Shown piece by piece: positions 1,732 through 58,866 of a stretch of DNA of 64,000 nucleotides. The DNA comes from Dehalococcoidia bacterium. Lineage in GTDB: Bacteria > Chloroflexota > Dehalococcoidia > Bin125. The notes under the pieces are model-generated. The model made no database searches, was not told the origin of the DNA, and worked only from the letters and a program-made list of their open reading frames with translations. A program made the position numbers and the translations under genes. Location of the stretch: assembly GCA_963663235.2 (NCBI GenBank), contig CAXXNO010000012.1:160001-224000 (forward strand), in the 5' to 3' direction. Position 1 is the first letter of the stretch. The number at the start of each line of letters is the position of its first letter.

Positions 1732-3476
1732 CCGCGTCGTCCCCGCCGGCGTTGAGCGACAACGCGCGGTTGGTGTTGGAGAGCCGGTATCTCCAGCGTG
1801 ACGACCAGGGACGACTCATCGAGACGCCCGCGCAGCTGTTCCGTCGGGTGGCGGACAACGTAGCCGGGGCCGAACGGGCTTACGGACGCGACGCCGCCGC
1901 CTTCGCCGACCAGGCGTACGCCCTCATGACGCGGCTGGAGTTCCTGCCCAACTCCCCCACTCTGATGAACGCCGGTCTCGGGATTCAACAGCTGGCCGCC
2001 TGCTTTGTCCTGCCCGTGGAGGACTCGCTGCCCAGCATCTTCGACGCCCTGAAATACACGGCGCTCATCCACCAGAGCGGCGGCGGCACGGGGTTCGCCT
2101 TTTCCCGGCTGCGCCCCGCCAACGACATCGTGCACTCCACGCACGGAGTGGCCAGCGGCCCGATCTCCTTCATGGAGGTCTTTGACGCCGCCACCGACGC
2201 GATCAAACAGGGGGGAACGCGGCGTGGGGCGAATATGGCGATCCTCAGCGTCGATCACCCCGACATCGAGGCGTTCGTGCGGGCCAAGGCCGACCGGCAG
2301 AGCCTGACGAACTTCAACCTCTCCGTGGCCGTGACCGATGCCTTCATGGAGGCCGTGGAAGCGGATGGGGAGATTCAGCTGGTGAACCCGCGGAGCGGCG
2401 CGGCGGCGGGAGTGCGCAAGGCGCGGGCGCTGTTCGCGTTGATCGTGGAGCAGGCGTGGGAGCACGGCGACCCCGGCCTGGTCTTCCTCGACCGCATCAA
2501 CGCCGCCAACCCGACGCCCCAGTTGGGCCCGATCGAATCCACCAACCCGTGCGGCGAGCAGCCGTTGCTCCCCTACGAGTCATGCACCCTGGGCTCGCTG
2601 AATGTGGCCAAGTTCGTGCGGGACGGGGACCTGGATTGGGAGCGGTTGGGCGGCGCGGTGGAGACGGCCGTGCGCTTCCTGGACAACGTCATCGACCAAA
2701 ACCACTATCCGGCGCCGCAGATCGAGCGGGCCACCAAGAGCACGCGGAAAATCGGGTTGGGCGTGATGGGGTTCGCCGATCTCCTGTGTCACCTGCGCGT
2801 CGCCTACGACAGCGACGAAGGGCTGGCTTGGGCGGCCCGGTTGATGGGCTTCATCCAAGAGCGGGCTCAGGGCGCCTCGCAGGAGCTGGGCGCGGAGCGG
2901 GGGGTCTTTCCGGCGTGGGAAGGATCGATCTTCGGTCCCGAGGGGCCGCGCTACCGCAACGCGACGCGCACCACGATTGCCCCGACGGGCACGATCAGCA
3001 TCATTGCCGACTGCTCCAGCGGGATTGAGCCGGTCTTCGCTTTCGCCTTGGTGCGGCGGCATTACCTGGACCGCGAGCATCGAGACCGGCTGGTGGAGCT
3101 GCCGGAGATGCACGAAGGGCTCCGCGCCGTTGCGGCGGCAGAGGGCTGGTGGAGCGACGATCTCCTGCGACACCTCCAGCAGCACGGATCGTTGCGCGCG
3201 TGGGGGGGCGCACCGGAGTGGGCGCGGCGGGTGTACGTCGCGGCGCACGAGATCAGCGCGGAGTGGCACGTGCGGATGCAAGCCGTCTTCCAGGACCACA
3301 TCGACAATGCGGTGGCCAAGACGATCAACCTCCCCGCCGACGCCAGCCCGGCGGACGCGGCCGACGCCTATCGCCTCGCCTGGCGGGAGAACTGCAAGGG
3401 GATCACCATTTACCGCCACACGGCGCGCGACAAGCAGGTCCTTTCCTTGGCGGCGCCGGAGGCCGACTGGCGGTAA
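1728..3476 (+). CDS. nrdJ: Class II (adenosylcobalamin) ribonucleotide reductase, short form lacking C-terminal domain
   Basis: FLPNSPTLMNAG, ACF, GGTRRGANM, TNPCGEQPL, ESCTLGSLN, TIAPTGTIS; overlaps nrdR stop. Confidence 0.92.
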   Translation: MTASSPPALSDNARLVLESRYLQRDDQGRLIETPAQLFRRVADNVAGAERAYGRDAAAFADQAYALMTRLEFLPNSPTLMNAGLGIQQLAACFVLPVEDSLPSIFDALKYTALIHQSGGGTGFAFSRLRPANDIVHSTHGVASGPISFMEVFDAATDAIKQGGTRRGANMAILSVDHPDIEAFVRAKADRQSLTNFNLSVAVTDAFMEAVEADGEIQLVNPRSGAAAGVRKARALFALIVEQAWEHGDPGLVFLDRINAANPTPQLGPIESTNPCGEQPLLPYESCTLGSLNVAKFVRDGDLDWERLGGAVETAVRFLDNVIDQNHYPAPQIERATKSTRKIGLGVMGFADLLCHLRVAYDSDEGLAWAARLMGFIQERAQGASQELGAERGVFPAWEGSIFGPEGPRYRNATRTTIAPTGTISIIADCSSGIEPVFAFALVRRHYLDREHRDRLVELPEMHEGLRAVAAAEGWWSDDLLRHLQQHGSLRAWGGAPEWARRVYVAAHEISAEWHVRMQAVFQDHIDNAVAKTINLPADASPADAADAYRLAWRENCKGITIYRHTARDKQVLSLAAPEADWR

Positions 3477-3852
3477 CGCGGCACTGTTGACCGGACGTCC
3501 GCGACCGAAATGCAGTGTTCGCGACGAAAAACGCCGCATTCGCGTCGTGAATGCAACGAAAAGAATTATGTGCACCGTTCGGCTGCGTCGAGCCTCCGTC
3601 TCCGGCGCACTCACTTTGTTTCTGCGACACACGCATCAATTCGCGCCGTCACATCTGGAAAGAGCGTGCGCGAACGCCACGACATCATGTTGTGTCGACC
3701 AAATCGTACGGGATGCGATCGCGGATCATGTTGCAGACGCAGGAAAAAACTTCCCACTAACTCTTGTGTAGTCCGAACAATCGCGCTGTAATTGATGCAA
3801 TAGAAGAGCATCCGCGATCAATTCGGATGCACCGCAAAGGGGAGGAACGCTT

Positions 3853-4476
3853 ATGCCAGCAGTCAAAAAGCGTGCGGCCAAGCGACCGGCCGCGAAAAAG
3901 CGAGCGACAGCGCGTAAGACCACGGCGCGCAAGGCGGTGAAACGGCGCACGGCCCGCAAGACCACCGCCCGCAAGGCGACCAAACGGCGCACGGCCCGCA
4001 AGGCCGCTAAGAAGCGCGCCCCGGCCCGCAAGGCGACCAAGCGGCGCACGGCCCGCAAGGCCGCTAAGAAGCGCGCCCCGGCCCGCAAGGCGACCAAACG
4101 GCGCACAGCCCGCAAGGCCGCTAAGAAGCGCGCCCCGGCCCGCAAGGCCGCCAAAAAGCGCGCTCCGGCCCGCAAGGCCGCCAAAAAGCGCGCTCCGGCT
4201 CGCAAGGCCGCCAAAAAGCGCGCTCCGGCCCGCAAGGCCGCCAAAAAGCGCGCTCCGGCCCGCAAGGCCGCCAAAAAGCGCGCTCCGGCCCGCAAGGCGG
4301 TAGCACGGAAGTCGGCCGCGAGGAAAGTCGCGCCGCCGCGGCCCGCCGCACCACGAGCGCCGATGCCGGCACCCCGCATGCCGTCACCGCTCGCGCCACG
4401 GCCACAGACGGGTATGCCGACGAGGATGCCGCCAACGACTCCGTCGCCGACCCAGCCGCCGCGGAGCATCTTCTAA
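3853..4476 (+). CDS. Histone H1-like Lys/Arg/Ala-rich DNA-binding protein with Pro/Met-rich tail
   Basis: RBS GGAGG upstream; repeated KKRAPARKAA / KRRTARKA units; no acidic residues. Confidence 0.85.
   Translation: MPAVKKRAAKRPAAKKRATARKTTARKAVKRRTARKTTARKATKRRTARKAAKKRAPARKATKRRTARKAAKKRAPARKATKRRTARKAAKKRAPARKAAKKRAPARKAAKKRAPARKAAKKRAPARKAAKKRAPARKAAKKRAPARKAVARKSAARKVAPPRPAAPRAPMPAPRMPSPLAPRPQTGMPTRMPPTTPSPTQPPRSIF
4138..4287 (+). repeat. Five near-identical 30-nt tandem repeats within histone-like gene (degenerate copies extend ~3870-4330)
   Basis: Unit GCCCGCAAGGCCGCCAAAAAGCGCGCTCCG at 4138, 4168, 4198 (one variant base), 4228, 4258. Confidence 0.92.
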
Positions 4477-51098: not shown

Positions 51099-51305
51099 AT
51101 GCCCACGTACCAGTTTCGTTGCAAGGACGGCCACGAGTTCGAGCGTCTCATGTCGTTCGCCGAATTCGACCGCAGCAAGCGGGTGCGCTGCCCGGAGTGC
51201 AAGAAGGGCGCGACGCGCGCGCCGGGGGGCTTCCTGTCCTTTAACAGCAGCCAGACGCCGCTCAAGGCGGGCCGACCGCAACAGACCCGCTACCACCCCT
51301 GGTAG
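51099..51305 (+). CDS. FmdB family zinc-ribbon protein
   Basis: MPTYQFRCKDGHEFE..CPEC. Confidence 0.82.
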   Translation: MPTYQFRCKDGHEFERLMSFAEFDRSKRVRCPECKKGATRAPGGFLSFNSSQTPLKAGRPQQTRYHPW

Positions 51306-51317
51306 GCGCCCGGCCAC

Positions 51318-52163
51318 ATGACCACGGAAGCCGTGGCGGACATCACCGACGGGACCTTCGCCAGCGAGGTGCTAGAGCGCTCGCGCGAGGTGCCGGTCGT
51401 CGTCGATTTTTGGGCCCCTTGGTGCGGCCCCTGCCGCCACCTGAGCCCCACGCTGGAGCAACTGGCCCAGGAGTACGCCGGTAAGGTCCGCCTAGTAAAG
51501 GTCAACATCGACGAGAATCCCGCCGTCGCCGGGCGGCTCGGCGTCCAGAGCATCCCCGCCGTCATGGCGTTCCGCGATGGAGAGATCGTCGACCAGTTCG
51601 TCGGGGCGCTGCCGGAGCCCGACGTCCGGCGTTTCTTCGAATCGACGCTGCCGTCCCCAGCCGACCTGCTGGTGGCCGAGGCGGCGCAATCGCTCGCTGG
51701 GGGCGACGTCGCCGCAGCCGAGCGGGCCTATCAGTCAGCGCTGGCGGGAGACCCCCGCCACGCGGACGCCGCGCTGGGACTCGCGGCGCTCGTCCTGGAC
51801 CGAGGTGACCTCCCGCAGGCAGGCGCCCTGGCCGAGCCATGGGCCGGCGACGCGCACGGCAAGCGGATCCTGGGATTGATCAGTCTACGGCTGGCGGCCG
51901 AGGGTGCGACACGCGCCGAGATCGAAGAGCGCCTGCGAGCGGATGAGCGCGACGCGGCGGCGCACTATGTCCTCGGCGCCCTGCTCGCCGTCGAGGGCGA
52001 ATGGGACGCCGCGCTGGAGCACCTGCTGGAAACCGTCCGGCTGGACCGCGCCTTCGCCGACGACGGCGGCCGTCTGCGGATGCTGGACGCCTTCAACGTC
52101 CTCGGCGACGACGATCCGCTCACGCAGAACTACCGTCGCAGGCTGAGCGCGGTTCTCTTCTAA
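51318..52163 (+). CDS. Thioredoxin-TPR protein (CnoX/YbbN family)
   Basis: DFWAPWCGPC, VQSIP, TPR repeats, YRRRLSAVLF. Confidence 0.9.
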   Translation: MTTEAVADITDGTFASEVLERSREVPVVVDFWAPWCGPCRHLSPTLEQLAQEYAGKVRLVKVNIDENPAVAGRLGVQSIPAVMAFRDGEIVDQFVGALPEPDVRRFFESTLPSPADLLVAEAAQSLAGGDVAAAERAYQSALAGDPRHADAALGLAALVLDRGDLPQAGALAEPWAGDAHGKRILGLISLRLAAEGATRAEIEERLRADERDAAAHYVLGALLAVEGEWDAALEHLLETVRLDRAFADDGGRLRMLDAFNVLGDDDPLTQNYRRRLSAVLF

Positions 52164-52646: not shown

Positions 52647-53543
52647 TCAGGTGAAGATGGGCAGGATCTCCTCAATCGCGCGGGCCTGCTTGCCGGTCGC
52701 CGCGTAGACGGAGAGGGTCAGCGGCTTGACGCCGGCAGCGTGCCAGGCCTCCACCTTCTCCCGCACCTGGGAGGCGGTGCCGAAGAGGGCCACGTCCTCA
52801 GCCATACGCTCTGAGACCGCCTCGTCCATGGCTTGCTTGTTCCCCTCAGCCTGCGCGGCGCGCGCCCGCTCTACCTCCTCGGCGTAGCCCGCCTCGATGA
52901 AGTAGTTCTGGTAGTTGGGCGTGGACATGTAGAGACGCAAGGCGCGCCGGATCGCGGCCAGGGCGGCGGCGCGATCGTCGGAGACGGAGCAGGGCGCCAG
53001 ATTCCCCACGATGAACGTGTCGCGCCGCTCGGCGGGAATCTCCTTGAGCGACTCGGGCATGTGTGACAGAGCGGCGTTGGCCCACAGGGCGCCGTCGGCG
53101 ATCTCGCCGGCGAGGCGGGTCATCTTCTTCCGCAGCGTCGCCAGGATCACCGGCGGGAGCGGCTGATCCTGCGCGGCCGCGCGCAGTTGCTCAACATAGC
53201 GGCGCATGTCGGTGACCGGTTTTCCCGCGCTAATCCCGAGCGGCCGCAGCGTCGGCTCATGCGCCACGCCCAGCCCGAGACGAAACCGCCCGTCGCTGAG
53301 CTCGTGGATCAAGTTCGCGCTGGCCGCCATGACCGAGGGATGGCGGGTGTAGATCACCGCGATGCCCGTGCCAATCTCGATCCGCTGGGTAGACATGGCG
53401 AGGGCCAGTGACAGCGAGACCCCGTCGGCATACGACGGGCAGTAGATATTCGGAAACCCGCGGCGGTCCAGCTCCTGCGCCGTCTCGATGATCGCACGGC
53501 GGCGGCCCGGCAGCGCCACCAGAGCAAACCCGGGCATCTCCAT
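52647..53543 (-). CDS. LLM-class (possibly F420-dependent) oxidoreductase
   Basis: IGTGIAVIYTRHP, LSDGRFRLGLG, LAGEIADG. Confidence 0.85.
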   Translation of the reverse strand: MEMPGFALVALPGRRRAIIETAQELDRRGFPNIYCPSYADGVSLSLALAMSTQRIEIGTGIAVIYTRHPSVMAASANLIHELSDGRFRLGLGVAHEPTLRPLGISAGKPVTDMRRYVEQLRAAAQDQPLPPVILATLRKKMTRLAGEIADGALWANAALSHMPESLKEIPAERRDTFIVGNLAPCSVSDDRAAALAAIRRALRLYMSTPNYQNYFIEAGYAEEVERARAAQAEGNKQAMDEAVSERMAEDVALFGTASQVREKVEAWHAAGVKPLTLSVYAATGKQARAIEEILPIFT

Positions 53544-53648: not shown

Positions 53649-55211
53649 ATGAAGCCACCTGCCGTCTTCACCCTGCGCGACGACCGAGGGGCAACGTACG
53701 CCTTCCCCGCCTCGCGGCCCACGCTTCTGGCGTTCGTGAAGGAAGACTGCGAGACCTGCAATCTGGCATTGCCGCTGCTCGAAGCGATCCACCGCGCGGC
53801 GGGCGACCGGATCAACGTCTGGGGCGTGGCGCAAGGGACCGATGACATCAGCATCCTGCGCGAGCGGCACGGGCTCACCATGCCACTCTTGGACGACGAC
53901 ACGCTGGACCTCTCCTACGACGCCGACATCGACACGGTGCCCTCACTGTTCCTGTACGACAGCAGCGGCGCTTGCGTGCGCGAGCTCACCGCCTTCTGGA
54001 AGGACGAATGGCAGACCCTGATCGACGAGGCCGTCGCCCTCGCCGGGAACGGACAGGCCCCGGCGATCGAGTGGCCGGCCCTGCCGGCGAACCAGCCCGG
54101 GTGCGGGGCGCGCAACGTGCTGCCCGGCATCGCCGAGAAGCTGGCGGCGCGCCGCAGCGGCGATCTGCTGTCGCGGCGCATCGACGTCGCCGAGGGCGAC
54201 GACCTGCACGAGTTCATGTTCGACCAGGGGTTCACCGACGGCCTGCCCGTGGTCCCGCCCACGCCGGAGCGCGTCTGGCGCATGCTGCAAGGCACGAAAC
54301 GGGACCCACGCGATGTCGTCGCGGTGATTCCGCCCAACATGGCCCCGGGGACGGTGGAGAAAATCGCGGTCAACGCCGTGATGGCAGGCGCCGAGCCAGC
54401 GTATCTGCCCGCCATCCTGACCGCGATCGAGGCCGCCTGCACCGACGAGTTCAACATGCACGGCGTGCTGGCCACCACCTGGCTGGCCGGCCCCATCGTC
54501 ATCGTCAACGGGCCGGCGCGCCACAAGCTGGGCATGAACATGCAGGGCAACGCCCTGGGCCAGGGCAACCGCGCCAACGCCGCCATCGGGCGGGCGTTGC
54601 AACTGGTCGTACGCAACGTCGGCGGCGGCCGGCCCGGTGAAGTGGACCGCGCCACCCTGGGGGGGCCGCACAAGTACACGTGCTGCTTCGCCGAATGGGA
54701 GGAGCGGTCGCCCTGGGAGCCGTTGCACGTGGAGCGAGGGTTCGCCGCGGAAGACTCGACGATCACCCTGTTCGCCGGTTCCGGGCCGCAACCGATCGCG
54801 GATCAACTCTCGCGCGACGGCCGCTCGCTGGTGCGAAGCCTAGCGCTGGGCCTGGAGTCGCTCTGGCACCCAAAGATGCACAACTTCGGCGAAACGTTCC
54901 TGGTGATCTCGCCGGAGCACGCGGACACACTGGCCGGCAGTGGCTGGAGCAAAGACGACATCCGCAAAGGCATCCAAGAAGCCACCGCGCGGCCCTGGCG
55001 GGAGCTTGTGGGTGACGCGGCGTGCGCCGAGGGCACGCGCCCGCCCAAAGACCCCGCCGACTTGGACAAGCTCGTGCCCAAGTTCCGCAGCGAGCGCGAG
55101 ATCAACATCGTGGTCGCCGGTGGGGAAGCGGGCATGTTCTCGCACGTGCTGGGAAACTGGGTAAGCGGGCCGATGGGTTCGATCAGCATCACCCGCAAGA
55201 TCGCGGAGTAA
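53649..55211 (+). CDS. Redoxin (CxxC) domain fused to large domain of unknown function; partner of UGSC protein
   Basis: FVKEDCETC..TVP; PGCG linker; TDGLPVVPPTPERV, TVEKIAVNAVMAG, NRANAAIGRALQL, WEPLHVERGF. Confidence 0.8.
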   Translation: MKPPAVFTLRDDRGATYAFPASRPTLLAFVKEDCETCNLALPLLEAIHRAAGDRINVWGVAQGTDDISILRERHGLTMPLLDDDTLDLSYDADIDTVPSLFLYDSSGACVRELTAFWKDEWQTLIDEAVALAGNGQAPAIEWPALPANQPGCGARNVLPGIAEKLAARRSGDLLSRRIDVAEGDDLHEFMFDQGFTDGLPVVPPTPERVWRMLQGTKRDPRDVVAVIPPNMAPGTVEKIAVNAVMAGAEPAYLPAILTAIEAACTDEFNMHGVLATTWLAGPIVIVNGPARHKLGMNMQGNALGQGNRANAAIGRALQLVVRNVGGGRPGEVDRATLGGPHKYTCCFAEWEERSPWEPLHVERGFAAEDSTITLFAGSGPQPIADQLSRDGRSLVRSLALGLESLWHPKMHNFGETFLVISPEHADTLAGSGWSKDDIRKGIQEATARPWRELVGDAACAEGTRPPKDPADLDKLVPKFRSEREINIVVAGGEAGMFSHVLGNWVSGPMGSISITRKIAE

Positions 55212-55233
55212 ATCGCGGAGTAAGGAGAGCGCT

Positions 55234-55761
55234 ATGGTCCAGATCCTCGACCCCACGGATGAACGGAAGCCGGTCCAGCGACGGCTGGCGCCGCGGCCCG
55301 AAGCGCTGGAGGGCACAGTGGGCCTGCTGGATATCTCGAAGCCGCGGGGCGACGTGCTGATCGATCGCATCGAAGAGCTGTTACACGACAAGGCTCCGTC
55401 GCTCACCATCAAGCGCTACCGCAAGCCGACTTTCTCCAAGCCCGCGCCGGCGGCGCTGTTGGAAGAGATCAAGGAGGGCTGCGACTTCGTCATCGAAGCG
55501 TTGGCCGATTGAGGGTCGTGCACCACGTGCAGTGTGCACGACACGACCTGGCTAGAGACCCACGGGACGCCGGCGCTGTTCATCGCTTCGTCGGCGTTCA
55601 CGGAAGCGGCGCAGAAACAAGCGACAGCGCTGGGCCTGCCGCAGGTGCGACGCGCAATCGTACCGCACCCGATCCAGGGCCAGAGAGACGAAGAGATGCG
55701 CGCGCGGGCCGACGCCGTGGCGGATGAGCTCATCGAGGCGCTGCTGCGGCCGCCGGACTAG
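55234..55761 (+). CDS. UGSC-type selenoprotein (UxxCxxC), UGA at 55510-55512
   Basis: RBS AAGGAG; ..CDFVIEALAD-TGA-GSCTTCSVHD..LETHGTP..IVPHPI in frame to TAG 55761. Confidence 0.87.
55515..55542 (+). promoter_or_regulatory. SECIS-like hairpin (UGSC gene)
   Basis: GTCGTGCA-C-CAC-GTGCA-GTG-TGCACGAC; 11 bp with one bulge, loop begins with G. Confidence 0.65.
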
Positions 55762-56471: not shown

Positions 56472-57182
56472 ATGCCGATTCACCTGCGCGCCACGCCCGA
56501 CGACCTCGCTCCCACTGCTCTCCTGGTCGGCGACCCAGGGCGGGCTGAGCGCATCGCCGGAGGCCTGAGCGACGCCCGCTGCTACAACCGCAACCGCGGG
56601 CTGCTGGGCTACACCGGGGAGCACGCGGGCCTCCGCCTCTCCGTTCAGACCACGGGCATGGGCGGGCCTTCCGCGGCGATCGTTACCGAAGAGCTGGCCG
56701 AGCTGGGCGTCCGCACCGTGATCCGCCTGGGCACCTGCGGCGCGGTCGCCGAAGCGGTGGCGGTGCTGGATCTGGCCGTCGCGACGGCGTCCGTGCCGCT
56801 GGACGGCGCCACACGCCAGTACCTCCAGGGCGAGCCATTCGCGCCGGCCGCGGATTTTGCCGTGACGCACGCGCTCGTCGCCGCGGGCGAGGCCACGTCG
56901 CGCCCGGTTCATGTCGGGCTCTTCATGAGCAGCGATGCGTTCTACCGAGAGGAGACGGACTGGACCCGCTGGCGCGACCGAGGTGTGCTGGCCGTGGAGA
57001 TGGAGGCTGCCACGATCTTCACAGTCGCGCTGCATCGGGGGATGCGCGCCGGGGCGATCTGCCTGGTGGTGGACGAAGTGCGCGACCGATCCACCTGGGC
57101 CAGCGACGACGCGATCCAGGCGGCGACAGAGGATCTCATCGCCGTCGGGCTGCGGGCCGCGGTCGCGCTGAGCCGCTCCTAG
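56472..57182 (+). CDS. deoD: Purine nucleoside phosphorylase (DeoD type)
   Basis: GDPGRA, GMGGPS, RLGTCG, SDAFY, AVEME. Confidence 0.85.
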   Translation: MPIHLRATPDDLAPTALLVGDPGRAERIAGGLSDARCYNRNRGLLGYTGEHAGLRLSVQTTGMGGPSAAIVTEELAELGVRTVIRLGTCGAVAEAVAVLDLAVATASVPLDGATRQYLQGEPFAPAADFAVTHALVAAGEATSRPVHVGLFMSSDAFYREETDWTRWRDRGVLAVEMEAATIFTVALHRGMRAGAICLVVDEVRDRSTWASDDAIQAATEDLIAVGLRAAVALSRS

Positions 57183-57889
57183 GGGGGACCGCCCGACACG
57201 CTCAGCGAGTCGGCGCCCTCGCCCCTACCCGGCGGCCCCGCGGTCGAGCGCAAGTAGCGCACGGTCTCCAGCGCTTCGCCTCCCGGCAGCGCCCTGGCGC
57301 GCGTCAAATCCTCAGGCGTATCGATGTCCAGAGCCCAACGCGCCGTCTCCACGACCGCCACAACCGCACCGGCCGCGCGCGCCGCCGCTTGGTGACGCGC
57401 CGCGGAGCCCGGCCCGTAGGCGGGCGCCATCACGCCCGGCGGCCGCAGCAACAGGCCGTTGGTGCCGCCGTCGCGCGACGGCGCGATGACGACGCTCGGC
57501 GCGCGCGCGAGCGCATCCGTGAGAGCGATGATGTCGGCGGCGCTGATCAAGGGCAGATCACCCGGAACGACCAGCAGCGCGTCGGCGTCCGCGCGGGCCT
57601 CCTGAGCAAGGCGCACGGCCGCGTTGAGGTCGCCGATGCCGGGTGGCTCCTGGAGAAACGCGGCGCCCAGCCGGGAGGCCTCGCGCGCCGCCGCCGCATC
57701 GCGGCTGAGCACCGTCACCCCACTGATACCGGGCGCCGCCCGCAGCGCCCGCACCACGTCATGCAGCATGGCGCGGACCAAGCGGATGCGCTGCTCCGGT
57801 TGAAGAACGGCGGCCAGCCGTGACTTGCCCGCCGGCAGGCCACGGACGGGGACGACCGCCTCAATCGTCGGCCCATCTGTCGGTGTCAC
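57179..57889 (-). CDS. cofC: 2-phospho-L-lactate/PEP guanylyltransferase (F420 biosynthesis)
   Basis: VVPV..GKSRL, GDLP, DGGTN, LDIDTPEDL. Confidence 0.9.
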   Translation of the reverse strand: MTPTDGPTIEAVVPVRGLPAGKSRLAAVLQPEQRIRLVRAMLHDVVRALRAAPGISGVTVLSRDAAAAREASRLGAAFLQEPPGIGDLNAAVRLAQEARADADALLVVPGDLPLISAADIIALTDALARAPSVVIAPSRDGGTNGLLLRPPGVMAPAYGPGSAARHQAAARAAGAVVAVVETARWALDIDTPEDLTRARALPGGEALETVRYLRSTAGPPGRGEGADSLSVSGGPP

Positions 57890-58866
57890 GCCGCACCCAG
57901 GGCGAGATCGGCGAGCGAATCGAGAGTGACGCGGGCCAGCGCCCGCTTCTCCTGCGGTCCCGCCATGATGGTCTGCGTGACCACGCAGGCAGCCGCGCTC
58001 TCTTCGCGGACCGCATCGGCCAGCGCCGCGTCCTCGTGGTCGAGGACGAAGAGGTCGATGAGGTCACGGTAGAGGCGCGCCACTCCCAACGCGGAGACAT
58101 CGTGGCCGAGGCTGGCCAGGATCGCCGCGGCCGGTCCCTTCAGCGCGCGGCCGCCCACGATCGGGCTGATCGCGGCCTTCGGCGCCTTGCTGGCCAGCAG
58201 GCAATCGCGGACGCCGGGGACCGCCAGGATGGGCTCGATGGAGAGGAACGGGTTGCTCGGCGCGATGATGATGGCCCGAGCCGCCATGATCGCCTCGTGC
58301 ACGCCGGGAGTCGCGACGGCGGCCTCGGCGCCGGCGAAGCGCAGCCCCAAGACACGGTCTTGCGTGCCCCGTCGCACGAAGTACTCCTGGAAGGCCAACT
58401 CTCCGTCCGGCGTCTCCACCATCGTGCGCAGGCGGCCGTCGGTTGCGGGCAGGATCGTGACGCGCAGGCCGAGCGCCCGCGCGATCTCGGCGGTCACCGC
58501 GCTCAGCGATGCGCCCTCACGCAGGCGCTGTGTGCGGTAGAGATGTGTCCCGATATCGCGGTCGCCCAGGCGGAACCAATCGGGTCCGCCGAGGCTGCGG
58601 AGCGCATCGAGCGCGTGGAACGTCTCCCCGCGCAGGCCCCAGCCCGTTTCCGGGTTCACCAGCCCCGCGAGGGTGTACGTGACGGTGTCTAGATCGGGGG
58701 CGATGTGCAGGCCGCCCAGTTCGAAGTCGTCACCGACGTTGACGATGGCGACCACCTCATCGGGCGGCACGACCTGAACCACGCCCTCCAAGAAGCGGGC
58801 CGCACCAACCCCGCCGGCCAGCGCCACGACCGGGGTCCCGCCCTTGCTCGCGGCATCGTCGGTCAC
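57886..58866 (-). CDS. cofD: 2-phospho-L-lactate transferase (F420 biosynthesis)
   Basis: LAGGVGAARF, NVGDD, PDLDT, FQEYFV, PSNPFLSI, KGPA. Confidence 0.93.
   Translation of the reverse strand: MTDDAASKGGTPVVALAGGVGAARFLEGVVQVVPPDEVVAIVNVGDDFELGGLHIAPDLDTVTYTLAGLVNPETGWGLRGETFHALDALRSLGGPDWFRLGDRDIGTHLYRTQRLREGASLSAVTAEIARALGLRVTILPATDGRLRTMVETPDGELAFQEYFVRRGTQDRVLGLRFAGAEAAVATPGVHEAIMAARAIIIAPSNPFLSIEPILAVPGVRDCLLASKAPKAAISPIVGGRALKGPAAAILASLGHDVSALGVARLYRDLIDLFVLDHEDAALADAVREESAAACVVTQTIMAGPQEKRALARVTLDSLADLALGAA

Follow-up and report, generated by a model that had tools for sequence, protein, structure and literature searches.

A single in-frame TGA codon divides what would otherwise be one continuous gene in the genome of a Dehalococcoidia bacterium (Chloroflexota; GenBank assembly GCA_963663235.2, contig CAXXNO010000012.1), and the locus raises the question whether this codon is decoded as selenocysteine (Sec) and what the resulting protein does together with the product of the gene in front of it. 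The window analysed is a stretch of 64,000 nucleotides (nt), positions 160,001 to 224,000 of the forward strand of that contig, and its own numbering is used below. On its plus strand, an open reading frame (ORF) for a protein of 520 amino acids (aa) (53649-55211) ends 22 nt before the start codon of a gene of the UGSC selenoprotein family (55234-55761). On balance, the two genes seem to code for complementary halves of a single selenoenzyme, cytoplasmic and driven by thioredoxin, whose catalytic steps we infer.

The TGA codon of the UGSC gene

The ORFs 55234-55512 and 55534-55761 are in the same frame and are interrupted only by the TGA codon at 55510-55512 (plus strand). Reading through this codon gives a product of 175 aa (...EALAD-U93-GSCTTCSVHDTTWLETHGTPALFI...RRAIVPHPI) with the motif AD-U93-GSC-TTC, in which the codon corresponds to U93 of a U-x-x-C motif. 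The product matched PF24696 with 169.9 bits (cut-off 25), residues 3-171 falling on profile positions 1-171 of 172, and NF041046 with 160.6 bits (cut-off 125). Both models extend across the two halves flanking the TGA, in agreement with the original prediction of one UGSC gene split by this codon. Judged from these profile matches, the product of 55234-55761 is confirmed as a full-length member of the UGSC family with Sec in the family motif, and it is identical in kind to other members, nothing differing in the protein itself. A Shine-Dalgarno-like AAGGAG (55224-55229, plus strand) is located inside the 22-nt intergenic gap, 5-10 nt before the ATG at 55234. The UGSC family is described as abundant and is not assigned a function in the accessible text of PMC2398784, PMC1976440, PMC5029168, PMC9312934 and a 2026 review (PMC13188914), so literature and family matches both accord with its earlier description as a predicted selenoprotein family lacking an assigned function.

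The codon at the Sec position was TGA in all 72 full-length homologs, the motif ADUGSCTTCS was identical in 72/72, and the protein sequence downstream of the TGA is conserved among them. Contigs of three runs from three studies span 55510-55512, with no difference listed there. Since TGA occurs in 72/72 homologs and is kept by three independent assemblies, it is not an assembly error. Among 53 diverse UGSC members, position 93 is U or C in all and position 96 is Cys in 52, and C99, the second Cys of UxxCxxC, is confined to the clade of the window protein. UGSC paralogs and fusions show the motif variants UGSC, UATC, USTC and UGAC. A check of the source genome for Sec machinery found all of the sel genes: selA (551.8 bits), selB (359.1 bits), selD (357.8 bits) and tRNA-Sec (70.9 bits, against a gathering score of 47). 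The selD gene (L010, G000:C4:103776-104699) has one in-frame TGA itself and is thus of the Sec-type selenophosphate synthetase kind.

A stem-loop after the UGA had been noted originally, and a hairpin resembling a Sec insertion sequence (SECIS) was found there (55513-55549, plus strand). Its lower stem (55513-55520 with 55542-55549) is specific to this window. Its apical stem-loop (55526-55540, CGUGCA-GUG-UGCACG; stem 55526-55531 with 55535-55540) begins 13 nt past the UGA. The energy of the hairpin does not exceed chance expectation (z = -1.35; equally good folds in 18 of 200 shuffles), and no double compensatory changes were found in the apical stem among 42 distinct homologous sequences. 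The apical stem (CGUGCA-GUN-UGCACG) is present in 42/42 of these sequences, one pair varying between G-C (36) and G-U (6), and synonymous sites are frozen in it: the third base of Thr98, a four-fold site, is G in 42/42, and Ser100 is AGT in 42/42, in contrast to codons 94, 95 and 97, which vary at the third base in the same set. Because of this comparison, the hairpin is regarded as real, and it is the comparative data, not the energy, that support a SECIS. Termination at the TGA, or an error there, with the halves as separate or dead ORFs, might be argued from the unexceptional free energy of the hairpin, but this explanation is hardly credible in view of family models spanning both halves, a TGA followed by conserved protein in 72/72 homologs, frozen synonymous sites, complete Sec machinery and three independent assemblies with TGA. 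By these sequence criteria, U93 is predicted to be made as selenocysteine via the UGA, the SECIS hairpin and selA, selB, selC and selD.

In the RNA run X20, only a 273-nt contig on 55571-55761 and short pieces of the conserved core were present, which is no proof of transcription. This core of about 65 nt (55482-55548; ALAD-U-GSCTTCSVHD and the hairpin) recruits contigs of many other organisms from metagenome runs at an identity of at least 90%, and the depth summed over it reaches 1820-4211 in DNA runs and 624 in one RNA run, versus about 4-9 in the flanks. Several metagenome assemblies break near 55545. Such cross-taxon conservation of the core at the nucleotide level fits a double constraint, by protein and by SECIS.

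Pairing with the upstream protein

The protein encoded upstream of UGSC comprises, all on the plus strand, an N-terminal thioredoxin-fold domain of TlpA/ResA type (residues 1-135, 53649-54053), a connecting segment (residues about 136-185, 54054-54203) and a large domain of about 345 aa belonging to an unnamed family (residues about 186-520 and the stop codon, 54204-55211). In species-representative genomes, 526 loci were confirmed, and the best 80 of the 526, which span Chloroflexota, Binatia, Alpha- and Gammaproteobacteria (taxon groups taken from record labels), were kept for neighbourhood counts. UGSC is located directly downstream of the partner gene and on the same strand in 78 of the 80 loci, the gap having a median of 31 nt and being no more than 137 nt in 76 of the 78. 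One of the two exceptions (L060) reaches a contig end, and the other (L063) is a true miss, for which a search out to 6 kb at E <= 10 gave no UGSC. The survey of neighbourhoods thus bears out the expected conservation of the gene pair.

The genome of the source organism (2.75 Mb) contains three UGSC paralogs, each with one TGA and each adjoining a large-domain paralog (36-38% identity), in either gene order; the thioredoxin domain is missing from two of the three pairs. The further pairs (L103, 1483-3101, plus strand, and L104, 1468-3410, minus strand) carry the motifs SSD-U-GSC-TAWS and AGD-U-ATC-SSRS, and the gene order is reversed in L103. Among 151 sampled genomes of the phylum, UGSC was found in 13 and the domain in 16, all 13 UGSC genomes having the domain, and of 18 UGSC matches 15 were either fused to the domain or no more than 300 nt away from it. 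These counts include the unpublished genome G038, without which UGSC is found in 12 and the domain in 15 of 150 genomes, with 13 of 16 matches close or fused. The exceptions are a UGSC gene 5.2 kb from the domain (G101) and UGSC fragments on contigs without the domain (G016:C19, G084:C111). Neither UGSC nor the domain was found in 200 other sampled Pseudomonadota.

Both parts also occur within single proteins. In six loci, UGSC and the domain are in one frame, the sole internal stop being the Sec TGA. N-terminal fusions of Cys form (P0163, P0172), reverse-order fusions cut at the Sec codon (P0130, P0152) and tandem duplications of the large domain among representatives were also identified, and in P0257 the large domain is fused to a thioredoxin-reductase-like Pyr_redox_2 flavoprotein with a CAVC motif. 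When P0172, a natural Cys fusion, was split into its two domains and these were docked as separate chains, the ipSAE was 0.42, versus 0.11 for the best control, which is rated as weak support; the docking runs share at least 94% of their contacts, with a pLDDT of at least 84 for the partner. Among solved complexes, 51 of 78 pass the docking mark, as do 2 of 108 mismatches; at an ipSAE of 0.60 or less, passes came from only 5 of the 78 solved complexes and from all 4 passing mismatches. On gene order and fusions, UGSC and the partner domain are shown to form an obligate, often fused pair with few exceptions. The earlier proposal that UGSC works with the upstream protein is therefore strengthened by the 78 of 80 loci, the three paralogous pairs, the fusions in both orders and the weak docking pass.

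The N-terminal 135 residues of the partner share the fold of the TlpA/ResA/StoA oxidoreductases, with the CxxC (C34-E-T-C37) at the active-site position; both of these Cys residues are invariant among 46 relatives, and some relatives of the partner score on PF00578/PF08534. An AhpC/TSA-like CETC domain had been predicted here, and the thioredoxin-fold module that was found is TlpA/ResA-like and plausibly an electron source. Unlike the TlpA/ResA/StoA proteins, the partner has no signal peptide or membrane anchor obvious by eye (the N-terminus, MKPPAVFTLRDD, is without a hydrophobic stretch, also by eye), and the module is fused to a cytoplasmic-looking enzyme domain. A comparable enzyme fused to its own thioredoxin module is PilB (Trx-MsrA-MsrB). 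The partner would resemble it as a reductase fused to a thioredoxin-fold domain that recycles it, although the catalytic domains of PilB differ from those of the partner and UGSC. The thioredoxin domain is dispensable for pairing with UGSC, because two of the three pairs in the source genome are without it. Of the redoxin-fusion partner that had been proposed, the pairing thus holds, but the essential part is the large domain. The PGCG segment that had been called a linker is likewise present, G151 and G153 being invariant and P150 and C152 conserved in at least 90% of 46 sequences, and the motif is also found in P0137; however, it is absent from unfused partner paralogs and thus specific to the thioredoxin-fused subfamily.

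For the large domain, no Pfam, NCBIfam or PDB sequence relative was found, and searches with its paralogs likewise gave nothing above noise. The family is nevertheless large, with 7236 representative clusters at E <= 0.001 and still 2262 at E <= 1e-30. Its motifs are DGLPxxPPTxERV, NAVMAG(C), ATT, NGP, LGxGNRANAxIGRA, (C)xxAE, SPW, PEH and VAGG. In 145 diverse members, A246, G247, G288, R315, E349 and G491 are invariant, and Cys is found at position 248 in 138 (NAVMAG-C) and at position 346 in 129. The UGSC-fused forms L140-L145, as well as L033, have Ala at position 248.

Relationship of UGSC to GrdB and PrdB

The AlphaFold model of UGSC (pLDDT 92.7, pTM 0.87) is a three-layer alpha/beta sandwich, in which Sec is placed where strand 85-91 ends and helix 94-109 starts. 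According to the model, the fold is flavodoxin-like and not a thioredoxin or peroxiredoxin fold; a thioredoxin-like fold was guessed for UGSC in the accessible text of Zhang and Gladyshev (PLoS Genet 2008, PMC2398784). The UGSC profile gave no matches among PDB sequences at E <= 10. Fold searches with the model listed no GrdB or PrdB chain, and no solved GrdB or PrdB structure was found for comparison (structure terms gave no relevant match in the accessible part of PMC11229817).

A relationship was detected when profiles were compared by hhalign, using 53 diverse UGSC sequences and 29 PF07355-type (GrdB/PrdB-like) proteins of the phylum. The probability was 93.9% (P 1.5e-7, score 55.4, 157 columns), and in the alignment Sec falls on Sec and the resolving Cys on Cys, with the E..G(I/V)P and HP motifs also aligned. 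The reversed template scored 13.3, and the highest scores among 20 column and 20 block shuffles were 19.9 and 31.3, respectively. Masking of the U and C columns left a score of 40.1 and an unchanged register. None of eleven unrelated family alignments, Rossmann-type and CxxC proteins among them, exceeded a probability of 4.5%. The GrdB-C-terminus-like character that the original prediction had assigned to UGSC is therefore real at the profile level, and UGSC appears to be a minimal protein distantly related to the Sec-bearing domain of GrdB and PrdB, not a member of that family.

Like UGSC, the proteins GrdB, GrdF, GrdH and PrdB (PF07355) carry Sec-x-x-Cys where a strand ends and a helix starts in an alpha/beta domain, and their systems, like the enzyme proposed for the UGSC pair, have two subunits and are tied to thiol reductants. 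UGSC differs in its length of about 175 aa, outside the PF07355 model, and in its partner family, which has no similarity to GrdE/PrdA (PF09338). Neither GrdA nor GrdCD was seen among recurring UGSC neighbours, and UGSC carriers are, by record labels, mostly aquatic Proteobacteria and Chloroflexota, not Stickland fermenters. The source genome itself encodes two PF07355 selenoproteins with LVPV-U-PVC motifs, at G000:C8:143304-144224 (L100/L105, minus strand) and G000:C8:96042-96662, and its PrdB-like protein P0123 matched PF07355 with 51.6 bits. Immediately upstream of the L100/L105 gene is an ORF of 421 aa whose product looks, by eye, like a glutamate-synthase-type FMN enzyme, and no GrdE/PrdA gene adjoining the L100/L105 gene was seen within the 3.4-kb locus.

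In its narrow form, the original idea would have the pair perform a strict GrdB/PrdB-type reaction, the reductive C-N cleavage of a pyruvoyl-bound amine or amino acid outside Stickland fermenters. That UGSC is remotely homologous to PF07355-type proteins, Sec matching Sec, agrees with this, as does the occurrence of true GrdB and GrdE-like gene pairs in the same phylum. However, alignment of the partner by hhalign gave 0.1% with GrdE/PrdA-like (PF09338-type) and 0.3% with PrdB-like proteins, PF09338 had no match in 12 large-domain members at E <= 10, grdA-, grdC- and grdD-like genes are missing from the recurring neighbours, and no self-cleavage motif was identified in the partner. As the partner is not a GrdE/PrdA-type pyruvoyl proprotein, C-N cleavage of the GrdB type is not implied, and we consider this version very unlikely. 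The idea of a stand-alone GrdB-like subunit served by a partner with thioredoxin input is retained in its GrdB likeness, pairing and CxxC module.

The fold and the relatives of UGSC also bear on another explanation, that the pair is an antioxidant or repair reductase acting on a hydroperoxide, sulfoxide, disulfide or persulfide, with Sec as the peroxidatic or nucleophilic residue as in Sec-peroxiredoxins or MsrB. The carriers, which we take to be aerobes, are labelled as aquatic or marine bacteria, and the fused domain is of TlpA/redoxin type, some of its relatives scoring on PF00578/PF08534. UGSC is also grouped with UxxC redox proteins in the accessible text of PMC2398784. On the other hand, the modelled fold of UGSC is flavodoxin-like, its sole detectable relatives are GrdB/PrdB-type proteins, a conserved, obligate 345-aa domain with invariant Arg, Glu and Asn is unneeded for peroxide reduction, and several paralogous pairs per genome suggest different substrates. 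An antioxidant role is therefore judged unlikely.

Proposed function and genomic setting

In Proteobacteria the pair is often located beside the genes of Sec decoding. Among proteobacterial loci with at least 2 kb of flank, selB is upstream of the pair in 42 of 60, versus 0 of 8 in Chloroflexota and Binatia, and in 13 of 57 proteobacterial loci the pair is followed downstream by an Ndh-SelD fusion. A tRNA-Sec gene was found between selB and the partner gene in 8 of 8 alphaproteobacterial loci tested, versus 0 of 6 others. In alphaproteobacterial loci (L025-L099, for example L097, 2400-10200), the order is selA-selB-tRNA-Sec-partner-UGSC-(Ndh-SelD fusion) over about 8 kb, and this cluster of sel genes and the pair looks like a transferable unit. 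In G151 and G152, selD is 1.3 kb from UGSC, and in the source genome selB is 84 kb from the pair in the window. In the carriers G151-G153, no in-frame stop was found in molybdopterin-enzyme matches or SelD, only these having been checked. Because of this, UGSC may be the main client of the alphaproteobacterial sel island.

This setting might mean that the pair acts in selenium metabolism, reducing or carrying selenium species (selenite-derived, selenotrisulfide or selenide) for SelD, or recycling or detoxifying selenium. The location of the alphaproteobacterial pair inside the Sec-machinery cluster, with selB, Ndh-SelD and tRNA-Sec at the frequencies given, and the proximity of selD in G151 and G152 are in line with such a role. 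A lone selenoprotein client beside its decoding genes would give the same picture, though, and the molybdopterin-enzyme matches and SelD of G151-G153 are without in-frame stops. The sel link is also missing from the 8 Chloroflexota and Binatia loci and from gammaproteobacterial loci, the selB of the source organism is far from the window, and its three pairs are more easily explained by diversified substrates than by a housekeeping carrier of selenium. For these reasons, a role in selenium metabolism is regarded as quite unlikely.

For a two-subunit, thioredoxin-driven selenoenzyme, the following reaction may be envisaged. The partner domain would bind and activate a substrate, probably small and polar or anionic, for which the invariant R315, E349 and N310, together with Cys 248 and 346 of most members, are candidate residues. 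The selenolate of U93 would attack the substrate, and C96 would resolve the adduct to form an intramolecular selenenylsulfide. This might be reduced by the fused TlpA-like CxxC (C34/C37), which would in turn be recharged by thioredoxin reductase and NADPH. Overall, the pair would operate as a selenoprotein-B-type reductase with a different substrate-handling subunit.

Several points weigh against this scheme, each catalytic step of which we infer. The Pfam GRDB model (PF07355) gives no match to UGSC at E <= 0.1, and hhalign of a low-diversity UGSC alignment with the single sequence P0123 gave 0.7%, a result superseded by the diverse profiles. The partner being unrelated to GrdE/PrdA, the analogy with selenoprotein B covers one subunit only. 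The partner in the window has Ala at position 248 (54390-54392), where 138/145 members have Cys, and if Cys248 takes part in a relay, the window copy works differently. The Cys-form fusion P0163 is without the resolving Cys (C-G-A-S). Fold searches with the whole partner model matched only residues 1-135 to 1-160, and none show small-molecule binding by the large domain. The docking pass is weak and comes from the relative P0172, not from the proteins of the window. Finally, the embedding in sel clusters fits a role in selenium metabolism equally well.

UGSC has been without a function since about 2005-2008, and this orphan now becomes a testable two-subunit enzyme, because it has an obligate partner (a family of 7236 representative clusters with no Pfam or NCBIfam model) that is repeatedly fused to thioredoxin or thioredoxin-reductase modules, and because it shows distant kinship to GrdB/PrdB. 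A broader proposal, which we advance tentatively and at slightly less than even chances, is that the pair represents a previously undescribed class of thioredoxin-powered selenoenzyme, in which a free-standing minimal GrdB/PrdB selenol domain and a substrate-handling domain of undescribed fold and family act on a metabolite in widespread aquatic bacteria. The compact selA-selB-selC-...-selD island of Alphaproteobacteria would be kept and passed on for the sake of this pair as its client. The placement in selA-selB-selC clusters suggests a reason why the Sec machinery, costly as it is, is retained in some bacteria. In the accessible UGSC literature, neither the partner domain nor a link to GrdB was found described, apart from a mention of a 'UGSC/Unknown_1' fusion (PMC2398784, Figure S1A), in which Unknown_1 may be the partner domain. 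Carriers of the pair include records labelled Sulfitobacter and Phenylobacterium, and Hyphomonas neptunium is named in the accessible text of PMC1976440; all three are candidate hosts for study.

The genes around the pair in the window were also compared among the 80 loci. Upstream are genes for a pterin-binding enzyme, a zinc-ribbon protein, a thioredoxin-TPR protein and a divergent luciferase-like (LLM) oxidoreductase, and downstream are those for a methyltransferase, a nucleoside phosphorylase, CofC and CofD. The LLM oxidoreductase (52647-53543) had been suggested to supply or use the substrate of the pair, but its gene recurs in 0 of the 80 loci and no link was found, so this part of the original prediction is abandoned. 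Recurrence of the pterin-binding, thioredoxin-TPR and methyltransferase genes is limited to 5-6 closely related loci of Dehalococcoidia. The region 51099-52163 encodes a 68-aa zinc-ribbon protein (PF09723), followed by the thioredoxin-TPR protein (PF00085 and TPR_20); synteny of the latter's gene with the pair is seen in 5 loci of Dehalococcoidia, and the gene of the former recurs in 0 of the 80. A role of the thioredoxin-TPR protein as a further redox partner is possible, or else the synteny might be only local. CofC and CofD, of F420 biosynthesis, are encoded on the minus strand at 57179-58866, with no link to the pair found, and together with the LLM oxidoreductase near the locus they indicate that the source organism probably uses F420.

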